Source: a virus. From it: a DNA stretch of 64,000 bases. Made by a program: the position numbers and the translations under genes. The DNA is taken from the IMG/VR virus record IMGVR_UViG_3300009550_000009. One strand, given 5' to 3'. This document shows positions 29,957 to 38,802 of the stretch, in pieces (the first letter of the stretch is position 1; each line of letters opens with the position of its first letter). The notes under the pieces were generated by a model. It ran no database searches. It was not told the origin of the DNA and saw only the letters and a program-made list of their open reading frames with translations.

Positions 29957-30364
29957 ATGACAGTTGACACAGAAAAATACTTAGACTTTGTGCATGATGT
30001 AACAAGCGCAGAAAGTTTAGACTATGCTGCTCTCTTAACTCGTATGAATAAACTAGAGTTAGAAGATGACTGTAATCTATCACAGTTATTAACCGCTGCA
30101 CTTGGTCTCACAGCAGAGTCTGGTGAATTTACTGAAGTAGTAAAGAAAATTATTCTTCAAGGAAAACCATATAATGAAAATAATGTCTTTCATATGAAGA
30201 GAGAACTAGGTGATATTTGTTGGTATATTGCTCAAGCATGTATGGCACTCGACACAACATTTGATGAAATAATTGAGATGAATGTTGATAAATTAAAGAA
30301 AAGATATCCCGGTGGTGAGTTTAACGTGCATCAATCCGAAAATCGTAAGGCAGGAGATCTATAA
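29957..30364 (+). CDS. mazG: MazG nucleoside triphosphate pyrophosphohydrolase
   Basis: GL.AE.GEF.E.VKK, ELGDI.WY, N..KL..RYP. Confidence 0.93.
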   Translation: MTVDTEKYLDFVHDVTSAESLDYAALLTRMNKLELEDDCNLSQLLTAALGLTAESGEFTEVVKKIILQGKPYNENNVFHMKRELGDICWYIAQACMALDTTFDEIIEMNVDKLKKRYPGGEFNVHQSENRKAGDL

Positions 30365-30367
30365 ATA
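30360..30367 (+). promoter_or_regulatory. T4-type late promoter
   Basis: TATAAATA. Confidence 0.75.
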
Positions 30368-30392: not shown

Positions 30393-31079
30393 ATGGGCTT
30401 AATGAATGATCTTGCAGGTTTATCTGCAGCATACGCCTCTATGAATAAGAGTGATCAAGGATATCTTTTGACAAGAGCAGATAAAGATGGTAATACTCCT
30501 GCGTGGCAAAATCGTTATAAGATAAATGAGGCAACAGGTAAACCATTGTATATAATGGCAGATCATCTTGTTGAGTCATTCGAGAATGAACTATTTCATA
30601 AAATTGATGAGGCTCTTGAGGAGTTAGATAAGTTAAACGAAGGAAAGATACCTGCAGGACTTAGAGCATACCTTGATAAGAAAAAAGGTAAAAAAGGTAA
30701 TGGAAAAGATAATGGTAATGGGAAAGATCATGATGATGATAATGGAAATGGAAATGGTAAAGGGAAACCAGATTTCATAGATCTTGATAAAGATGGTGAT
30801 AAAAAGGAGTCAATGAAAAAGGCTGCTAAAGATAAGAAAATGAAAGAGGAAAATTCTCTTTTAGATTCTGGTATTTTTTCTGAAGAAGAAATAACTGGTA
30901 TTCTTTGGGGTGAGTTTGAGGAGAACAGACAAGTTGCTATGAATCCTGAGAAGTATAAAGATCCAGATGAATCTGATAAACCATATCGTCAGAGATCAAA
31001 AGCAGCAAGAATGAGAGATCCTGAGAGAGGAATCAACTCTCCTGCGTTCAAGAAGTTTATGGCAGACCGAGGAATGTGA
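30393..31079 (+). CDS. Late, charged, modular protein (putative capsid-internal protein)
   Basis: Late promoter; Gly-Asn low-complexity tract; PDFIDLDKDGD (DxDxDG) motif; hydrophobic-X-E junctions. Confidence 0.6.
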   Translation: MGLMNDLAGLSAAYASMNKSDQGYLLTRADKDGNTPAWQNRYKINEATGKPLYIMADHLVESFENELFHKIDEALEELDKLNEGKIPAGLRAYLDKKKGKKGNGKDNGNGKDHDDDNGNGNGKGKPDFIDLDKDGDKKESMKKAAKDKKMKEENSLLDSGIFSEEEITGILWGEFEENRQVAMNPEKYKDPDESDKPYRQRSKAARMRDPERGINSPAFKKFMADRGM

Positions 31080-31101
31080 TATTCAATATTGTATGCTACA
31101 A

Positions 31102-31109
31102 TATAAATA
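31102..31109 (+). promoter_or_regulatory. T4-type late promoter
   Basis: TATAAATA. Confidence 0.65.
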
Positions 31110-31129
31110 TCTCAGATATTTAAATTACT

Positions 31130-31384
31130 ATGGCATTACATATGCGTGAGCAAATCCTAAGAGCATTGATTGCACATGCTCAAGGAGACATTGCAAAACA
31201 TAGAGCAAATGTTGAAGTTTATCTTGAACATCCTGCAGGTGTTGGTGAGCACACTGACATACTAGAATCTATTGAAAAGGAATTAGATACTATTGCAAAG
31301 TATCAAGATCAGATAGATGTAATCAAGAAGTATTTCATGTCGTCTCAAACTATGTCTAATATTGACAAAAGATCGAGTGAGTAG
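31130..31384 (+). CDS. Conserved cyanophage hypothetical protein
   Basis: HA.G.I.KH.ANVEVYL..P.GVGEH.D motif. Confidence 0.75.
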   Translation: MALHMREQILRALIAHAQGDIAKHRANVEVYLEHPAGVGEHTDILESIEKELDTIAKYQDQIDVIKKYFMSSQTMSNIDKRSSE

Positions 31385-31388
31385 ATAG

Positions 31389-32840
31389 ATGGCTGATTCA
31401 CCCAAATTATCAGAATCATCACAAGCATTATTTTGTGCTGTTGTTGATTATTTGGGTAAACCAATTAATGGTAGAAATAGACCGGCAAATTATCCTGCTT
31501 TTAAAAGAGAATATGGATCAATAATTAATAGAGTAAAAAACAAAGTTAAAACTGGATCTGTTTCAGTGTCAAGTATTGAAAGATATTTAACGGAGAATAA
31601 AGACTGGTATGACTCATCAATTAATATAGCGAATGAACTTTTTAATGCAACAGCAAAAATATCTAGAAAAACTTACAATAGAATAAAACCAAAAGGAATA
31701 AGTTTGTTTTATATTAGAGGTGATAAAGGCACGAGAGATATCATGAGTGACATTGCACTTATTTGGAAATATACAAATACTGCTGTAAAAAAAAGAAACA
31801 GATTAGAAGGGATAAACGATTTAACATTTAACGATATAAACAAGTGGAGTCCAGCAGATATCTATCTTGCCTCTCAAAAAGGTAGGATGGTTATAAGACA
31901 ATTAGCCTCTGGAAAAGTAATGGGTAGTGGAATTAAAATTGGTAAAACAAATATTGATTCACTTACTGCTATGACAAGTTTTTCAGTATTGAACGCTTTA
32001 TTAAAACAAATGATGGAGAATGGTGACATACTGCCACTGTCTTTAAAGAAAGCACCTAACAAGGATAGCGTTGTTATAAAAACAATAAATTTTATGGACA
32101 ATGATGTTGCGAATGCTTTGAAAAAAAATGATATTAGATATCACGGTTATATATTTTCACAAACACAGGACGTATTCAACTCAAAAGATGTTTATATTAA
32201 GATAACTACAGGCCCTTTTAAGTTGCAATTCAGAGATAAGGGTGGAACTGGTGGTGGACAAAAACCCACTTTTTCTTATCAGTGTATAATATCTGGAGGA
32301 AAACAAGCTCTTGATGGTAGTCTTGCAGGTGATTCGATAGGTAATGTTATATTTCAAACAAACCAATCTTTAGGAAGACAATTCTCTTCAGCAAGTCAGA
32401 GTAGAATAATAGACTCAGCTTTTAAGATTGCAAAAAATATGCAAAAAGAGATAGATGTTGATGGGGTTCTATCTAAATCAATAGAAAATACTATTTGTAG
32501 AAAAGTATATGAATATGCGGTGAAATACTCTAATACCGCGATAGGATCAATAAAATCCTTTTACGAAGAATTAGTTAATCATCCTCAGTTTTCGAGGGGT
32601 GGCACATCTATCATGGTCAAGGAAGATGGTGGTAAGGTGAGACTTGAGAGTGAACTTTTAGTTGAAAGAGCAAGAACACAATTTTTATTTGGAAAGTTTA
32701 TGGGTGGTAGATTGATAGAGGGCATGGAGAGATCAAAAAAAGACGCTGATGAAATAGCGATAAATTTATTATTATATGCAGGATCAAGAACGGCTAAATC
32801 ATCACCCCATGTTAAAGCATCTGATATCTCATCATTGTAA
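31389..32840 (+). CDS. Hypothetical protein, possible PD-(D/E)xK nuclease fold
   Basis: NKWSPADIYL...PLSLKK. Confidence 0.5.
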   Translation: MADSPKLSESSQALFCAVVDYLGKPINGRNRPANYPAFKREYGSIINRVKNKVKTGSVSVSSIERYLTENKDWYDSSINIANELFNATAKISRKTYNRIKPKGISLFYIRGDKGTRDIMSDIALIWKYTNTAVKKRNRLEGINDLTFNDINKWSPADIYLASQKGRMVIRQLASGKVMGSGIKIGKTNIDSLTAMTSFSVLNALLKQMMENGDILPLSLKKAPNKDSVVIKTINFMDNDVANALKKNDIRYHGYIFSQTQDVFNSKDVYIKITTGPFKLQFRDKGGTGGGQKPTFSYQCIISGGKQALDGSLAGDSIGNVIFQTNQSLGRQFSSASQSRIIDSAFKIAKNMQKEIDVDGVLSKSIENTICRKVYEYAVKYSNTAIGSIKSFYEELVNHPQFSRGGTSIMVKEDGGKVRLESELLVERARTQFLFGKFMGGRLIEGMERSKKDADEIAINLLLYAGSRTAKSSPHVKASDISSL

Positions 32841-32870
32841 ATCGCTAAATAAAGTATATAATACCATCTT

Positions 32871-34145
32871 ATGAAAGGTTTTTCACGATTTTTAGTTGAA
32901 GCAGAAGAATCCAAAGTAGCCGCTCAAGCAAAAAGACTCAATCTAAAGAGTGATGGGCATGGCGGTTGGTTAGATGCTGGTGGAAAGTATGTTGCAAAAA
33001 CAGAAAAAGGAAAACTAAAATTCTTTGGTAAGAGAGGTGGAGCAAAAGAAGATCCACAGACACAAACTCGTAGACCAACACCAGAACCAATCAAAACTAA
33101 AGTTGCTGCAAGACCCGGACAAGTTGCAGCACCAGCAAAACCAGCACAACCAGAAACTGCAGCACCTGTAAAGACAAAAAAACCTGATGAGGCAGAGACT
33201 GCAGAGGGAGATACAATTACAGTTGCGTTTGGTAGATTTAATCCACCAACTATAGGTCATGAAAAATTATTAAAAGCAGCACAAAAAGTTGCTGTGGGTG
33301 GTGAATTAAAAATATACCCATCAAGATCACAAGATCCAAAGAAAAATCCTCTTGATCCTGATATGAAAGTTTCATTCATGAGAAAGATGTTTCCAGAGTT
33401 TGAAGAAAATATTATAAATGATTCAGAAATGAGATCAATATTTAATGTATTGGTTACAGCAGCAGAGGAAGGATATAAAAATGTTAATATTGTTGTTGGA
33501 GCAGATCGTCAAGCAGAGTTTGAAAATCTTGCAAACAAATATAATGGAGAACTATATGATTTTGATGAGATTAGAGTTATTTCTGCTGGCGTGAGAGATG
33601 CTGATGCTGAAGGAGTTGAAGGGATGTCGGCATCTAAAATGAGAAAAGCTGTAGTAGATGATGATTTTAATTCATTTAAAACAGGAACACCAAGTTCTAT
33701 AAAAGATGCAGATGCACAAGCTTTATATGATGCAGTTCGTTCTGGTATGAAGATTGCAAAGAAGAAAGCAGTTGCAGAATTATGGCAAATTGCACCTAAA
33801 TGTGATCCAAGAGGTTTGAGAGAACAATATGTATCTGGTAATTTATATAAATTAGGTGATTATGTTGAAAGTTTGAATACGGGACTGATAGGAAAAATAA
33901 TTCGTCGTGGAACTAATCATTTAATATGTGTAACCGAAGAAAATTATATGTTTAAAACATGGATAAAGGATGTCATGGAATATTCTGAAGTCAGAATGAG
34001 TCGTCGTATGAGAGATAAAACACACCCAAATTACTTAATTGGCACTTCAGGATATAGAAAAAACGTTATGGATAAGATGGGTATGAAGAAAATACAGAAC
34101 TTTGATATTAAGGAGTTCATAAATAAATACAGACTAAAAAAGTGA
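32871..34145 (+). CDS. HxGH-class nucleotidyltransferase (cytidylyltransferase/NMNAT-like) with a capsid-targeting-like N-terminus
   Basis: FGRFNPPTIGH, VVGADR, MSASKMR; begins MKGFSRFLVE; CTAAATA upstream. Confidence 0.85.
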   Translation: MKGFSRFLVEAEESKVAAQAKRLNLKSDGHGGWLDAGGKYVAKTEKGKLKFFGKRGGAKEDPQTQTRRPTPEPIKTKVAARPGQVAAPAKPAQPETAAPVKTKKPDEAETAEGDTITVAFGRFNPPTIGHEKLLKAAQKVAVGGELKIYPSRSQDPKKNPLDPDMKVSFMRKMFPEFEENIINDSEMRSIFNVLVTAAEEGYKNVNIVVGADRQAEFENLANKYNGELYDFDEIRVISAGVRDADAEGVEGMSASKMRKAVVDDDFNSFKTGTPSSIKDADAQALYDAVRSGMKIAKKKAVAELWQIAPKCDPRGLREQYVSGNLYKLGDYVESLNTGLIGKIIRRGTNHLICVTEENYMFKTWIKDVMEYSEVRMSRRMRDKTHPNYLIGTSGYRKNVMDKMGMKKIQNFDIKEFINKYRLKK

Positions 34146-34146
34146 C

Positions 34147-35484
34147 ATGCCACAAGGAATATCGCCAAACCCATTAAACAAACTATCACAAATCTACTTA
34201 AATCAGATTGTTGAATCTGATTGTGATTGTGAAGGATGTGGTCAAGACCCATGCATTAAGTGTGGAAGAAGTCATCATATTGTGAATGAGCATCATAAGA
34301 AAGACGCAGATGGTAATACGATTCCTCATGAGGGTGAAGATGTTGATGAAGCAATGTATACAGGCCCTAACAAAGAAGATAGAAAGCAAATTAAAAAAAT
34401 GGATGACCCTAGTTATGCTAAGAAGTTAGCAGACTATGAAAAGAATATGGATCCTAAGAAACGTCAGGCTCTTAAGGATAAAGCAACTAAGGGTATGAAG
34501 TTTACTCATGAAGCATTTTCTGACACAGGTATGGCAAAAGGATCTGGAAAACCATCTGGTGCTATGAAAGATTTTCTTGATAAGAAAGCAAAGAAACTAG
34601 AAAAACAAAGAGCGTCACAATCTCAAGCTGCTAGAAATAATCCTCACTTTGATAGCACACAACCATCACCATCAGGTAGAAATAAGTATATGGAATCTAT
34701 TTCTAATTGGAGAGAAGATTTTATATGGGAAGAAGAAGTTGAAGGCCCCGATAATAAAGATAATAAAAAAGTAACAGAGAAAAATATAAAAAATAAAATT
34801 GTTATTAATCCTAAATTAGGTGAGGCAGTTGAAAGTATGGGTGGACAACTGATTGATGTTGTTGAAATGGATATGGATAAAAAGGGTCAAGAGGATCCAC
34901 AAATGAAATCAAAGATGCTTCGTCAAAGGCAACTTAAAAAACAAGTATTACTTCGTAAATTACAGGCAGTAAGACAAACTGGTGGTGAAGACATTGTTGC
35001 ATCATATGAACCAGACGGTGAACAACTTGATGAATATGGTAATCCAAGAGTAGGAATGAGGTTGAAAGTTGCTCGTGCGATTGATAAAGTAAATCCAAAA
35101 CCAAAAGTAGGTAGTAAGAGAACTGCTATTTCAAACAAGTTGAAGATGTCTTCAATACGAGCAGAAACTAGAAGACAAAAACAAAAAGATAATCCATATT
35201 CAGTTGGTAAAAAAGTAAAGACTGCACTTGGAATGAGCACTGAAGACTACATTCCAGAAGAGGGATATGATCATTATAAAGATCGCATGGCTGAAAGGGG
35301 TATTGATATAAGTTCTCCTGATAAGAAAGATGCAACAACTATGCCAAGAAAACCAGAGAAACAATCAAAAGGCATGACTGCTGCACAAAAAGCAGCAAAA
35401 GGTAAATCTGCGCTTGATATTGTGAAAGCAGACATTAGGAAAAAATATGGTAAAGGTGCCATCATGGATATGAGTAAAAAATAA
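34147..35484 (+). CDS. Late, modular, Lys-rich protein (putative internal polyprotein)
   Basis: ATAAATA upstream; Cys cluster CDC..C...C..C; basic blocks separated by hydrophobic-X-E. Confidence 0.65.
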   Translation: MPQGISPNPLNKLSQIYLNQIVESDCDCEGCGQDPCIKCGRSHHIVNEHHKKDADGNTIPHEGEDVDEAMYTGPNKEDRKQIKKMDDPSYAKKLADYEKNMDPKKRQALKDKATKGMKFTHEAFSDTGMAKGSGKPSGAMKDFLDKKAKKLEKQRASQSQAARNNPHFDSTQPSPSGRNKYMESISNWREDFIWEEEVEGPDNKDNKKVTEKNIKNKIVINPKLGEAVESMGGQLIDVVEMDMDKKGQEDPQMKSKMLRQRQLKKQVLLRKLQAVRQTGGEDIVASYEPDGEQLDEYGNPRVGMRLKVARAIDKVNPKPKVGSKRTAISNKLKMSSIRAETRRQKQKDNPYSVGKKVKTALGMSTEDYIPEEGYDHYKDRMAERGIDISSPDKKDATTMPRKPEKQSKGMTAAQKAAKGKSALDIVKADIRKKYGKGAIMDMSKK

Positions 35485-37229
35485 TGCCAGCACTTTCCAA
35501 AAAACAACAAAGATTTATGGGAATGGTTTATGCAACCAAAAAAGGTGAAATGGATAATCCGTCACCTGAAGTTCAAAAGGCTGCAGACTCTATGAAAAAA
35601 AGTGATGCAAAAGATTTTGCATCTACAAAACATAAAGGTTTACCAAATAAAGTAGTGCAAAAGGAAGAATCAAATCCTCGTATTCCTCGCAAGAAGGGGC
35701 AACCAGCAGGTTCAAAAAAACATTCTGATTTATATACTGATGAAAATCCTAAAGGAACTATTCATGGACTTGGTTTTAAGGATGTGGCTACTGCTAAAGC
35801 ATCTGTCTCAAAAATACGTAATTCTTCAAGATCACATGCTCATAAAATTCAAGCAGCAGTTGCTATGGAACAAAGGGCAAGAGAAATGGGTAAAACCTCT
35901 GAAGCAGCAGTCTATAGAAAATTCATCAACACGATGAAGGAAAAGACAAAGAAGATGAATGAAGCGATAAATCCTGCACAACAGGCTGCTATTGCTATCT
36001 CTAAAAAGAATAGATTGCAAGATTTAAAAATTGTTAAGAAAAAAAAGAAATCTATGAGTGAGAAAAAAGATCATGAACACTCAATGATAAGATCTCAACT
36101 CTCCACTATCATGAGAGCATCACAGAGATTGAAGAAAAAAATGAAAGGTGAAGGTGATGTAGAAGCATGGGTTCAATCAAAGATTACTAAAGCAGCAGAT
36201 TATATAGATACTGCAGCAGATTATGTAGATAGTGGTGAAGTAAACGAAGAAGGTTTACGGAACTGGTTTGGTAAATCAAGCGGAACTACTAAGTCTGGAC
36301 GCAAAGTAAAAGGTTGGGTTCAAGTTGGTGGTAAGTATGATGGTAAACCTTGTGCTCGCCAACCCGGTCAGAAAACAACTCCTAAGTGCACCTCTTCATC
36401 AAAGAGAGCATCTATGAGTGATAAAGAAAGAGATAGTGCTCGTCGTCGTAAGGTCGCTGCTGATCCCGGTCAACCACAAAAGTCTGGTGCAGCAAAACCT
36501 ACCATGGTATCAACTGACCCCAAGAAAAAAATGAAAGAAGCAAAAGAGCTCCCTAAAAATGTAAAAGGGATTGCAAAAGAGCTTGATAAAGCAGTTGAAT
36601 TGCATTCTAGTCAAGCAAAAAGGTTAAGAAAAGCTGGTATAAGTGAAGCAAAGGACAAAAAAGGTAAGGGTAGTGGCACAAAAGATGCTTGCTATCATAA
36701 AGTTAAGTCACGTTATTCAGTTTGGCCTAGTGCATATGCTTCAGGTGCTTTAGTTAAGTGTCGTAAAGTAGGTGCTGCTAACTGGGGTAACAGCACGAAA
36801 GAAGAGTTCGTGAAGGACGGAATCTCATTTCAACAGTTTCAGGAAAAGTGTTGGAAAGGTTATGAAAAGAAAGGTATGAAGACGATGTTTGGTAAGAGAT
36901 ATCCAAACTGTGTCAAGAAAGAGGAGACTGAGGTAGTAAGAGAGGATGATATGAAGGGGATGAGCGTCAAGTCTGGTCATAAAAGACCCACAAAAAGTGG
37001 GGCTGGAATGACAAAAAAGGGTGTTGAGGCGTATCGCCGTAGAAATCCGGGGTCTAAATTAAAGACAGCGGTGACTACTCCTCCATCAAAACTAAAAGCC
37101 GGAAGTAAGTCTGCCAACAGAAGAAAGAGTTACTGTGCAAGAAGTGCAGGGCAAATGAAGAAGTTTCCTAAAGCAGCGAAAGATCCAGATAGCAGATTAA
37201 GGCAAGCACGAAGACGCTGGAACTGCTGA
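35484..37229 (+). CDS. Highly basic multi-module protein (DUF3008-like, DUF5872-like and DUF6321-like modules); putative internal polyprotein
   Basis: Modules S.KQQRFMG...DFAST, HSDLYTDENPKGT, WVQSKITKA.DY, L..WF...W...PCAR, DACY.KVK.RY..WPSAYASG, CW.GY...PNCVK, G.GMT..G...RRKS.CAR...RRW.C. Confidence 0.75.
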   Translation: MPALSKKQQRFMGMVYATKKGEMDNPSPEVQKAADSMKKSDAKDFASTKHKGLPNKVVQKEESNPRIPRKKGQPAGSKKHSDLYTDENPKGTIHGLGFKDVATAKASVSKIRNSSRSHAHKIQAAVAMEQRAREMGKTSEAAVYRKFINTMKEKTKKMNEAINPAQQAAIAISKKNRLQDLKIVKKKKKSMSEKKDHEHSMIRSQLSTIMRASQRLKKKMKGEGDVEAWVQSKITKAADYIDTAADYVDSGEVNEEGLRNWFGKSSGTTKSGRKVKGWVQVGGKYDGKPCARQPGQKTTPKCTSSSKRASMSDKERDSARRRKVAADPGQPQKSGAAKPTMVSTDPKKKMKEAKELPKNVKGIAKELDKAVELHSSQAKRLRKAGISEAKDKKGKGSGTKDACYHKVKSRYSVWPSAYASGALVKCRKVGAANWGNSTKEEFVKDGISFQQFQEKCWKGYEKKGMKTMFGKRYPNCVKKEETEVVREDDMKGMSVKSGHKRPTKSGAGMTKKGVEAYRRRNPGSKLKTAVTTPPSKLKAGSKSANRRKSYCARSAGQMKKFPKAAKDPDSRLRQARRRWNC

Positions 37230-37258
37230 CCTATATAATATACGTTTAGGAAATTATT

Positions 37259-37453
37259 ATGCTTTCATTTTTACTACCATTCGCATCAAAAATTGTATCT
37301 GATGCGGTGAATAAAATCCCTGAAAATGAGGAATTAGGGGATAAACTTATTGAAGTTTGTATAGTCATCCTTAAAAAAGCAGTTAAGTTAACAAAAACTG
37401 ACATGGATGATAAACTTTTAGCGGAAGTCGAGAAGGCAATTCAGACCCGTTAA
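37259..37453 (+). CDS. Small conserved cyanophage hypothetical protein
   Basis: FLLP.A..I...AV.KIP...LT.TDMDD.L. Confidence 0.65.
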   Translation: MLSFLLPFASKIVSDAVNKIPENEELGDKLIEVCIVILKKAVKLTKTDMDDKLLAEVEKAIQTR

Positions 37454-37471
37454 TTTTGAAGATCACATATC

Positions 37472-37479
37472 TATAAATA
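37472..37479 (+). promoter_or_regulatory. T4-type late promoter
   Basis: TATAAATA. Confidence 0.75.
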
Positions 37480-37512
37480 TTAATTAGCAAGAAAATCTAA
37501 AGAGAGAAAAAC

Positions 37513-38802
37513 ATGGCACTTTGGGGAAACAAGGATGCTGGTATTGGAACTGCCCCTGCAGCACATGCAGCGCAGGCCACGTTAACCTTGAATTATGCAA
37601 CAAAAGAAATTGTTGGAGCAGCAACCACGTTTGGTCGTGTCGGTGCAGCAAAAACAGGTGATGTAATAGAAATCGGATCAAGAGCACCGGGTGCCACTTA
37701 TTTCGGTAGTGCTACCATTGTTGGTATCGCAAGCACGACTTCCATTTCTATTGGATCAACAGCCGGTTTAAGCGGTGCAGCAATATCTGGAGTTACATTT
37801 TTCAAAGTTCGTGAGTGTCCTACCTCATCAGAAGGCGATCAATCATTCAGCACAAGAAATGATTCCGCATCAAGTTTGAATAAAATTGGAGAAGTAATTT
37901 TAGGAGCAGCAGTTGCCACTTCTGATGCAGCGGGTGTTGGTGTTAGTGTTTTCTCTGTAAGTAAGGCACAACAAAGTAGTGAGAGAGGACTAGGATTAAT
38001 AGTTGGAGATAGCATAGATACAAATACTGGTAATCTTGTCATATCAAAAGTAAATGATGCTGTTGTGACCACATTATCTGCTGTTGGAGCAGGAGAAACA
38101 GTCTTTAGATTCGCTCCTCCACCGGGTATAAAACATGGTCAATTTATTCAAGACCAGAGTGGATCAATCGTTGGTTTTGGATCTACTACAGTAAAAGCGT
38201 TAGTTGGACAGGGTGCAACAACTAATTACATAACAATTAGTAATCTTGCTGGACATAATCTCTTGGCGGGAGATACAATTTTAACTCCTAATATTGCATC
38301 TGCTGTTGCAATCGGAACAGTGAATGTAGGTGTTAATACTATTTCATTAGTTGCTGGTGCCTCTGGAGGAACAATTACTGCTGGTATGGCGATCACAGTC
38401 TTTAGTGATACTATAGTTACATTAACTAAGGGTGCTGACATTGCTGTTAACGCTGGTTTAGGATTGACTATTGTTGGTGATGAGACTGCAGCGTTCATAT
38501 CATTCTCATCGAAAACAGGATCAGCTATTGCTTCTGGAGCAGGTGTAACTGTTAATAGATTCCAAGGTGGTTATGATAGATTCATATATGGAACTGCAGG
38601 TGCTGGTCTAACAGCAACAGGTGACTCTACTGCCGGTGATAAATTTATTCTTGACCATTCCGGATGGGTTGGTGTTCAAACATACGTTGATTCAGCGGGT
38701 AACTTAAGAGTTAAGAAAGAAGTATTAGTTGCAATGTCAGGTATTACAACTGCTGATACTCCGATCTATCCAGCATATCCACCAAATCCACCAGCTGCAT
38801 AA
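37513..38802 (+). CDS. Gly/Ala/Thr-rich virion structural protein (fibre/decoration-like)
   Basis: MALWG.KD N-terminus and H.GWVG..TY.D..GNLRVK.E.LVAMS C-terminus flank a variable beta-rich middle; late promoter. Confidence 0.7.
   Translation: MALWGNKDAGIGTAPAAHAAQATLTLNYATKEIVGAATTFGRVGAAKTGDVIEIGSRAPGATYFGSATIVGIASTTSISIGSTAGLSGAAISGVTFFKVRECPTSSEGDQSFSTRNDSASSLNKIGEVILGAAVATSDAAGVGVSVFSVSKAQQSSERGLGLIVGDSIDTNTGNLVISKVNDAVVTTLSAVGAGETVFRFAPPPGIKHGQFIQDQSGSIVGFGSTTVKALVGQGATTNYITISNLAGHNLLAGDTILTPNIASAVAIGTVNVGVNTISLVAGASGGTITAGMAITVFSDTIVTLTKGADIAVNAGLGLTIVGDETAAFISFSSKTGSAIASGAGVTVNRFQGGYDRFIYGTAGAGLTATGDSTAGDKFILDHSGWVGVQTYVDSAGNLRVKKEVLVAMSGITTADTPIYPAYPPNPPAA

Follow-up and report, generated by a model that had tools for sequence, protein, structure and literature searches.

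In a 64,000-nucleotide (nt) stretch of viral DNA (IMG/VR record IMGVR_UViG_3300009550_000009; hereafter the window), three genes on the + strand encode modular proteins of 228 amino acids (aa; 30393-31079), 445 aa (34147-35484) and 581 aa (35484-37229). It is likely that two of these proteins, those of 445 and 581 aa, and probably the third as well, are head cargo polyproteins processed by gp21, the prohead protease of T4-type phages. The source phage is a T4-like cyanomyovirus; the DNA and protein matches of the window are to T4-like myoviruses of Prochlorococcus and Synechococcus (Kyanoviridae). A first-pass annotation had read the three open reading frames (ORFs) as polyproteins that are packaged into the prohead and cut after Glu in hydrophobic-x-Glu motifs, and this interpretation is partly supported by the present analysis. 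It has passed every comparative test that the annotation had suggested, whereas the cutting itself, a location inside the head and the role of the released peptides lie beyond what comparison shows. The three ORFs were confirmed, as were all the motifs that had been named in them: MNE160|A, MSE193|K, VNE255|E, MKE352|A, ISE388|A, FQE454|K and VRE487|D in the 581-aa protein, IVE23|S, VNE48|H, VDE68|A, VTE211|K, LGE226|A and LDE296|Y in the 445-aa protein and LNE83|G, MKE152|E and FEE177|N in the 228-aa protein (numbers refer to the Glu residue, bars to the border or predicted cut).

Placement of the motif at module borders

The 581-aa protein, whose net charge is +81, belongs to a very large family, with at least about 8000 significant proteins per protein search. 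In a comparison with 120 homologues, break-points of ungapped similarity were found at residues 60-62, 152-162, 249-256, 347-353, 379-388, 436-451 and 478-494, and these clusters coincide with MKE153 and MNE160, VNE255, MKE352, ISE388, FQE454 and VRE487, as well as with VVQKE61. All eight [LIVMF]-x-E sites of this protein are located within 7 aa of homologue-defined borders, in agreement with the claim that its module boundaries fall at such motifs, and none of the eight is found inside a module interior. Two exceptions were observed: the border between the DUF3008 module and the next module, VVQKE61|E, has its hydrophobic residue at P4, and a break-point around residues 286/287 has no Glu motif. 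Among 72 non-redundant relatives, 72% of the motif sites were located within 2 aa of a junction, as compared to 25% of all positions, and the control motifs hydrophobic-x-Asp, hydrophobic-x-Lys and hydrophobic-x-Gln reached 24%, 27% and 22%, respectively. The raw number of [LIVMF]-x-E motifs relative to shuffled sequences (8 versus 5.2, 10 versus 6.0 and 8 versus 4.0 expected; z of 1.4 to 2.3) was rejected as evidence on its own, since these z values are mild and other ORFs in the window reach similar ones.

An AlphaFold2 (AF2) model of the whole 581-aa chain had a mean predicted local distance difference test score (pLDDT) of 60 and a predicted template modelling score of 0.26, with confident islands at residues 11-40 (local pLDDT 81 to 86), 101-150 (about 90), 455-480 (strands 460-478 at 77 to 81) and 510-581. 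The junctions at 61, 193, 255, 352, 388 and 487 fall between these islands, in modelled segments with pLDDT below 50, which is consistent with the junctions being accessible linkers.

The junction logo and avoidance of the motif in module interiors

A junction logo was constructed from 13 module anchors (i.e., conserved module starts) with 231 distinct upstream contexts in two families. These anchor-defined junctions replaced a first junction profile from the ends of all ungapped high-scoring segment pairs, which was too noisy and showed Glu enrichment without a clear P3 signal. Glu was found at P1 in 93% of the 231 contexts and P3 was also hydrophobic in 83%, while about 1% would be expected by chance. 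P3 is Val in 23%, Met in 23%, Leu in 16%, Ile in 13% and Phe in 10%, P2 is unconstrained (N, S, K, T, Q, G, D and others), and P1' is occupied by one of E, A, K, D and G. The maturation site of the major head protein gp23, as aligned, follows the same logo in T4 (LTE|A), S-SM2 (IAE|Q), the record nearest to the window, G001 (LME|Q), and a further record, G010 (LSE|A).

Module interiors, defined as positions separated from every junction call by more than about 5 aa, are depleted of the motif (88 seen versus 158.7 expected; z of -6.4), and hydrophobic-x-Asp, -Lys and -Gln are over-represented in the same interiors. The mature chains of the T4 internal proteins IPI, IPII and IPIII likewise lack the motif. 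Enrichment at borders combined with avoidance in interiors is what a cleavage signal predicts, and is not predicted by a mere habit of linker composition. Each of the alternative explanations weighed below fails to account for at least two of the following: Glu at P1, avoidance in interiors, the match to the gp23 site and the presence of basic fragments in mature virions.

Modules of the 581-aa protein

Nine modules can be delimited along the 581-aa protein, all encoded on the + strand. Module 1 (35484-35666; aa 1-61) is a DUF3008-like unit of three helices ending in VVQKE61|. Its match to DUF3008 (PF11450; residues 3-57, full profile 1-57) falls just under the Pfam cut-off (23.5 bits versus 24; E of 6e-5), and precomputed PF11450 matches are present on close homologues of the protein. 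Module 2 (35667-35963; aa 62-160), with the sequence NPRIPRK...HSDLYTDENPKGT..., ends in MNE160| and carries an extra MKE153| site. In all 39 distinct upstream contexts of this module P1 is Glu, and in relatives more than 12 different modules come after its end, ...KKMNE|. Module 3 (35964-36062; aa 161-193; NPAQQAAIAI..., ending in MSE193|) was delimited from homologue contexts and indels, and module 4 (36063-36248; aa 194-255; ...MIRSQL...WVQSKITKA..., ending in VNE255|), which is placed before module 2 in many relatives, from a whole-module indel.

Module 5 (36249-36539; aa 256-352; GLRNWFGKS..., ending in MKE352|) was defined by anchor contexts, with hydrophobic-x-Glu directly upstream of its start (GLR.WFGKS) in 26 of 26 distinct contexts. 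The first-pass annotation had named DUF5872, DUF3008 and DUF6321 among the modules; while DUF6321 is well above and DUF3008 just under the Pfam cut-off, DUF5872 (PF19197) gave no Pfam match in the 581-aa protein even at E up to 10, and the lead towards it at module 5 is weak (an Atlas cluster with DUF5872 in 14% of its members, at a score of 0.89). Module 6 (36540-36647; aa 353-388), a single helix with ...IAKELDKAVELH... that ends in ISE388|, is missing in several close relatives. Modules 7 (36648-36845; aa 389-454; DKKGKGSG...WPSAYASG..., ending in FQE454|) and 8 (36846-36944; aa 455-487; a CW.GY...PNCV beta-hairpin ending in VRE487|) were both defined by anchor contexts, supplemented for module 8 by the AF2 model, and the full motif precedes module 7 in 35 of 42 contexts. 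Module 9 (36945-37229; aa 488-581 plus stop) is DUF6321 (PF19846; residues 507-579, 43.4 bits versus a gathering cut-off of 28.5, E of 5e-11), with two invariant Cys, and is preceded by [L/V/I]-x-E|DDMK in all 34 distinct contexts, which show 12 different residues at P2.

In a sample biased by how it was gathered, the DUF3008 module is N-terminal in 99% of 172 occurrences and DUF6321 is always C-terminal, with all of its 141 occurrences inside the last 90 aa. The pattern is thus one of DUF3008 at the N-terminus, or in the 445-aa family a leader that is always at the start, DUF6321 last and middle modules that float. Some relatives (P0138, P0139, P0141 and Atlas rows) carry DUF192 (PF02643) or DUF5661 together with DUF6321, and the module pool therefore includes larger named domains.

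Gain and loss of whole modules and their occurrence as separate genes

Global alignments showed that the gaps between the 581-aa protein and its close relatives correspond to whole modules in register with the motif. The 62-aa block of residues 194-255 (MSE| to VNE|) is missing in four relatives (P0004, P0011, P0042 and P0045) and residues 161-255 (MNE| to VNE|) are missing in three, while modules of 40, 64 and 101 aa are inserted after MNE160 and VVQKE61 in others. Gains, losses and rearrangements of modules all keep the register of the motif. One explanation for such a register that involves no proteolysis would see in the motif just a short stretch of DNA or protein homology at which modules recombine, or which marks past recombination. 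Module order and number do change very fast, even where part of the query is matched at about 99% identity, and K-rich flanks are common to many junctions. However, five residues at P3 and at least seven at P2 leave no shared nucleotide stretch beyond the Glu codon, the conserved chemical type points to selection on the protein and avoidance in interiors would not be predicted, so that this explanation appears very improbable.

Modules were also found as free-standing genes elsewhere. A scan of viral contigs for DUF6321 yielded 80 loci, of which 76 are free-standing (91 to 114 aa), start with MA.KK... and are without the motif, while the remaining four are fused (375 to 1076 aa) and all read [L/V]-x-E|DDMK. 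Peptidase_S77, the domain of gp21, is carried by two of three fragments with the fused form, and no match to it was found in 11 records with free-standing DUF6321, among them two genomes, of 58 and 66 kb, with 100% completeness. In Pelagibacter phage HTVC033P, where no gp21-family protease was looked for, a row of six tiny genes of 42 to 96 aa (gp36-gp41; L009:1362-2528) adjoins the lysis amidase. Four of these genes resemble modules by eye, in an unscored comparison: NPRIPRK/YTDENP, an IAKELD-like helix, GLYANIHAKRKR and DUF6321, with gp40 similar to a free-standing module 2 and gp41 similar to module 6. HTVC010P and HTVC023P have DUF6321 alone.

The existence of modules as separate genes could also be taken to mean that the multidomain proteins remain uncleaved, the motif being a scar of gene fusion that preserves relic start codons, or its internal Met residues being secondary starts that give nested products. 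Met is one of the two commonest residues at P3, Val, Leu and Ile are one base from ATG, and some free-standing or 5'-shortened genes start at P3 (MTE|ES-NPRIPRK, MNE|G-SLHKWF and MQE|G-WSDKY). A fusion scar, however, does not explain why P1 is almost always Glu, why Phe occurs at P3 and the ATG neighbours Lys, Thr and Arg are rare there, why interiors avoid the motif or why the motif is identical to the gp23 maturation site, and in phages with no gp21-family match the separate genes begin with MA.KK..., not with M-x-E. We regard uncleaved proteins with fusion scars as quite unlikely.

The 445-aa and 228-aa proteins

The 445-aa protein (34147-35484) has motif-bounded borders at residues 23, 48, 68 and 296, as had been claimed, whereas VTE211 and LGE226 showed no clear borders. 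Its 23-aa N-terminal leader (34147-34215, + strand) ends in IVE23|, and similarity to 103 of 120 homologues stops exactly at this residue. In most homologues the leader ends in ISE| and is directly followed by HHKKD; here a Cys-rich insert (residues 24-48), ending in its own VNE48|, is located between IVE23| and HHKKD. Residues 71-219 consist of modules common to the 581-aa family. A protein identical to the 445-aa one is encoded on a contig of 142 kb.

The 228-aa protein (30393-31079; PHROG 24078) has a C-terminal module that begins after FEE177|N. This module is a separate 70-aa gene in P-SSM4 (PSSM4_157), with LDE|N before it, and forms the C-terminus of a metaG-MbCM1 'cytidyltransferase', with YAE|N before it, so that Glu directly precedes it each time. 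As an observation in its own right, P-SSM4 genes 157 and 158 (L006:5815-6617) and MbCM1 gene 191 (L007:4208-4858) start with MLSFK.[FY]..L.E| or MLSFKAYLAE|, a second leader type on small module genes that resembles a capsid-targeting sequence.

The neighbouring nucleotidyltransferase and evidence from virions

Directly upstream of the 445-aa gene, a 424-aa protein resembling cytidylyl- and nicotinamide mononucleotide (NMN) adenylyltransferases (T4-GC190; PHROG 395, E of 3e-102) is encoded on the + strand at 32871-34145. Its first residues, MKGFSRFLVE|A (32871-32900, + strand), form a leader of the capsid-targeting type when compared to T4 IPII and IPIII, whose leader is MKTYQEFIAE|A; the P-SSM4 nucleotidyltransferase has MKKFSAFLKE|A. 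In the IPIII leader, residues 4 and 7 have been shown to carry targeting and residues 8 and 10 processing (PMC9026906), and all four of these functional positions are matched by both the window and the P-SSM4 leader. The family of this enzyme includes 4333 proteins at E up to 0.001; the pattern MK.F..[FL][LIV].E is found in most of 150 representatives (P0361-P0510), and in some members the leader directly abuts the HxGH core. To judge from this leader, the nucleotidyltransferase looks like a widely conserved packaged, and possibly injected, cargo. In many of its long relatives the enzyme is followed by the same basic modules, with leader, enzyme and modules in one chain, and one (P0440) reads MKE|module 2, then the enzyme, then further modules.

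Homologues of these proteins have been reported in cyanophage virions, in the literature and in annotation. A homologue of the nucleotidyltransferase was detected in S-SM1 virions (PMC3037559), and NMN-adenylyltransferase-like proteins were reported in virions of S-SCSM1 and two further cyanophages (PMC9602691). T4-GC119, which corresponds to the C-terminal two-thirds of the 581-aa protein, was represented by 13 peptides in published mass spectrometry of S-SM1 virions, and homologues of the 581-aa protein are annotated as 'virion protein' in S-SCSM1 and 'structural protein' in S-B43 and S-E7.

These data bear on the alternative that the proteins are indeed cut by gp21 and act as auxiliary scaffold or core rather than as cargo, their fragments exiting the head ahead of DNA packaging or in its course, like most fragments of T4 gp22. 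The same motif is frequent in the gp22 scaffold proteins of both T4 and S-SM2, and detection in virion proteomes is patchy, with the Syn9 homologue reading as annotated but undetected. On the other hand, homologues are found in mature virions, both in S-SM1, with its 13 peptides, and in S-SCSM1; the polyprotein fragments are strongly basic while scaffold fragments are acidic, and basic peptides should stay on the DNA. Patchy detection is, moreover, to be expected for Lys-rich peptides of 4 to 10 kDa after gel separation and trypsin digestion. A role as scaffold is, overall, unlikely.

Proposed processing and points that weigh against it

We infer that the proteins are incorporated into the head, that gp21 cleaves them there and that the peptides are retained. 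Each polyprotein would be made late as one chain, composed of a position-fixed N-terminal module or leader and a variable string of small, mostly basic modules, which in the 581-aa protein would close with the fixed C-terminal DUF6321. The chain would be built into the prohead core, which the neighbouring nucleotidyltransferase would enter by means of its T4-type capsid-targeting leader, and a prohead protease of the gp21 type would then cut each module border behind the Glu of [V/M/L/I/F]-x-E. The 581-aa chain would thus yield about ten peptides of 0.9 to 10.5 kDa, eight of them with a predicted isoelectric point of 9.5 to 11.4 and one near neutral, and these would stay with the DNA. In this arrangement one targeting end would load many passengers in fixed stoichiometry, and modules could be swapped in register while packaging and release are retained.

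Several points weigh against processing of this kind. Cleavage by gp21 is proposed from sequence patterns, and the gp21 of this phage itself is assumed from the nearest record, G001, and from family membership. The contexts in the logo, although they come from many unrelated upstream modules, are not phylogenetically independent. Not every junction fits, with the hydrophobic residue at P4 at the DUF3008 border and T, Q or A at P3 in some others. The body of the nucleotidyltransferase has a normal motif density (9 versus 7.9), which means that accessibility, and not sequence alone, must decide where cutting occurs. Any targeting signal in the 445-aa and 581-aa proteins is not of the IPIII-leader type: they start with MPQGISPN... 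and MPALSKKQQ..., respectively, and lack the pattern of aromatic residues at 4 and 7, an aliphatic residue at 8 and Glu at 10. The detection of homologues in virions does not place the proteins inside the head. Finally, small phages keep the same modules without fusion and without a gp21-family match, so that the function of the modules need not depend on head delivery of this kind.

With regard to the role of the peptides, which is the weakest step of the proposal, we favor neutralization of DNA charge, DNA condensation or a function during DNA entry over specific anti-defense effectors; given the charge of the peptides, and given that other phages conserve them as single genes, a DNA-associated role is likelier than that of fast-evolving anti-defense effectors. 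The suggestion that the modules form a shuffleable set of anti-defense effectors found no direct support, the module sequences being well conserved while their combination varies. A broader scenario, which we put forward only tentatively, is that in cyanophages a fixed N-terminal module carries a fast-reshuffled train of mini-proteins, drawn from a pool of dozens of module types common to marine phages, into the prohead, where the head protease may uncouple them, and that the basic peptides may then travel with the DNA into the cell.

Comparison with known systems

The closest parallel is found in the T4 internal proteins IPI, IPII and IPIII and Alt, which are basic proteins expressed late and contained in the head of a T4-type phage, as is proposed for the proteins described here. 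The T4 internal proteins have a short N-terminal leader that ends in aliphatic-x-Glu and is removed by gp21, leaving a mature chain without the motif, and the nucleotidyltransferase, with its IPIII-type leader, is comparable to Alt as a packaged enzyme. In T4, Asp at position 10 of the leader prevents processing while targeting is retained. Unlike the T4 internal proteins, each of which is a single cargo that is cut once (Alt being cut at both ends), one chain here would hold about 9 to 10 cargo units, each with its own site; the polyproteins also begin with other position-fixed N-terminal modules and show no homology to the internal proteins. No homology to IPI, IPII, IPIII or Alt was found among the Pfam, PHROGs and NCBIfam matches of the polyproteins, for which NCBIfam itself gave no match, and no peptidase or known effector domain was found in the two polyproteins with Pfam and NCBIfam. 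A Foldseek search of the 581-aa model against the PDB gave no match at E up to 0.001, and phmmer against PDB sequences gave nothing meaningful.

In phiKZ, 201phi2-1 and SPN3US, many head proteins are cut after Glu by a prohead protease related to gp21, often at multiple sites, and some inner-body or ejection proteins of the phiKZ type are packaged with the DNA and ejected (PMC9026906). There, however, multiple sites mostly serve to remove propeptides, the proteins are not strings of shuffled mini-modules and no homology was seen. Polyvalent proteins are chains of 2 to 15 domains predicted to be packaged and delivered, with their domains released by proteolysis (Iyer et al. 2017, PMC5512222). 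They differ in containing enzymatic conflict domains and usually a peptidase of their own (MPTase), whereas the domains here are tiny and basic and the protease is a separate prohead protease; the paper (PMC5512222) makes no mention of cyanophages. Searches of the literature found no paper on DUF3008 or DUF6321, one irrelevant mention of DUF5872, no paper beyond a T4 review that links 'capsid targeting sequence' to cyanophages and no description of a shuffled head-cargo polyprotein system.

In adenoviruses, the core precursors pVII and pX (Mu) give rise to small, very basic DNA-associated peptides made in the capsid by the virion protease. This comparison concerns an unrelated virus lineage and protease, with one product per precursor. 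From the phage systems above, the present one would differ in three respects: many independent, shuffled mini-cargo units per chain, each with its own site, the lack of homology to known internal proteins and a protease that acts in trans.

Few viruses in the sea are as abundant as the T4-like cyanophages, which, to our knowledge, have no recognizable homologues of the T4 internal proteins, a gap that the polyprotein family would fill. The system would also be a natural counterpart of Black's engineered packaging of capsid targeting sequence fusions, with one targeting end and many released passengers. It would explain orphan DUFs as virion-cargo modules and would provide a sequence grammar, with hydrophobic-x-Glu at borders and avoided inside, for predicting both head cargo and protease specificity. 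If the proposal is true, such phages would load, combinatorially and stoichiometrically, DNA-bound factors of first contact that could act as charge neutralizers, as protectors of entering DNA or as host-takeover peptides.

Genomic context and other genes of the late block

All genes in the window are on the + strand, and among them are uvsX, the gp41 helicase, MazG, the gp61 primase, nrdA and a large glycan operon. The block at 30393-38802 has mazG on one side and gp61 and nrdA on the other and is syntenic with P-SSM4, in which the order is mazG, cytidyltransferase (T4-GC190), GC420-422, GC119, GC424, structural proteins, gp61 and nrdA. The nearest record, G001 (35% shared words), carries gp21 (Peptidase_S77), gp22 and gp23 in canonical order, and the annotated relatives are all Kyanoviridae with gp21. 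A copy of the 581-aa protein was searched for in G001 and none was found.

Late promoters had been claimed at 30360, near 32845 and at about 34120. The first is an exact match to the T4-type late promoter box TATAAATA (30360-30367, + strand), 26 nt upstream of the 228-aa ORF, whereas the other two are imperfect variants. Exact copies of this box are found at 30360, 31102 and 37472, each just 5' of the start of a + strand ORF. The whole window has four copies, as compared to 8.8 expected from shuffled sequences, always on the + strand, and three of the four are located in the late block at 30 to 38 kb.

Between the 228-aa gene and the nucleotidyltransferase gene, two further proteins are encoded on the + strand. 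An 84-aa protein of PHROG 1811, a family without known function (31130-31384), has its own copy of the box at 31102. A 483-aa late protein of PHROG 1462 (31389-32840) starts with MADSPKLSE|S, a short leader ending in L-x-E, and may be another head-targeted cargo; its homologues in isolated phages are almost nil, with one at 28% identity.

Downstream of the 581-aa gene, 37259-37453 encodes a conserved 64-aa protein that starts with MLSFLLPF (PHROG 402; T4-GC424 in P-SSM4). This gene is followed at 37513-38802 by one for a 429-aa protein rich in Ala, Gly, Thr and Ser, which lies behind the exact box at 37472. The corresponding position in P-SSM4 is occupied by an 'S-layer domain protein', whose record notes similarity to an S-SM1 protein.

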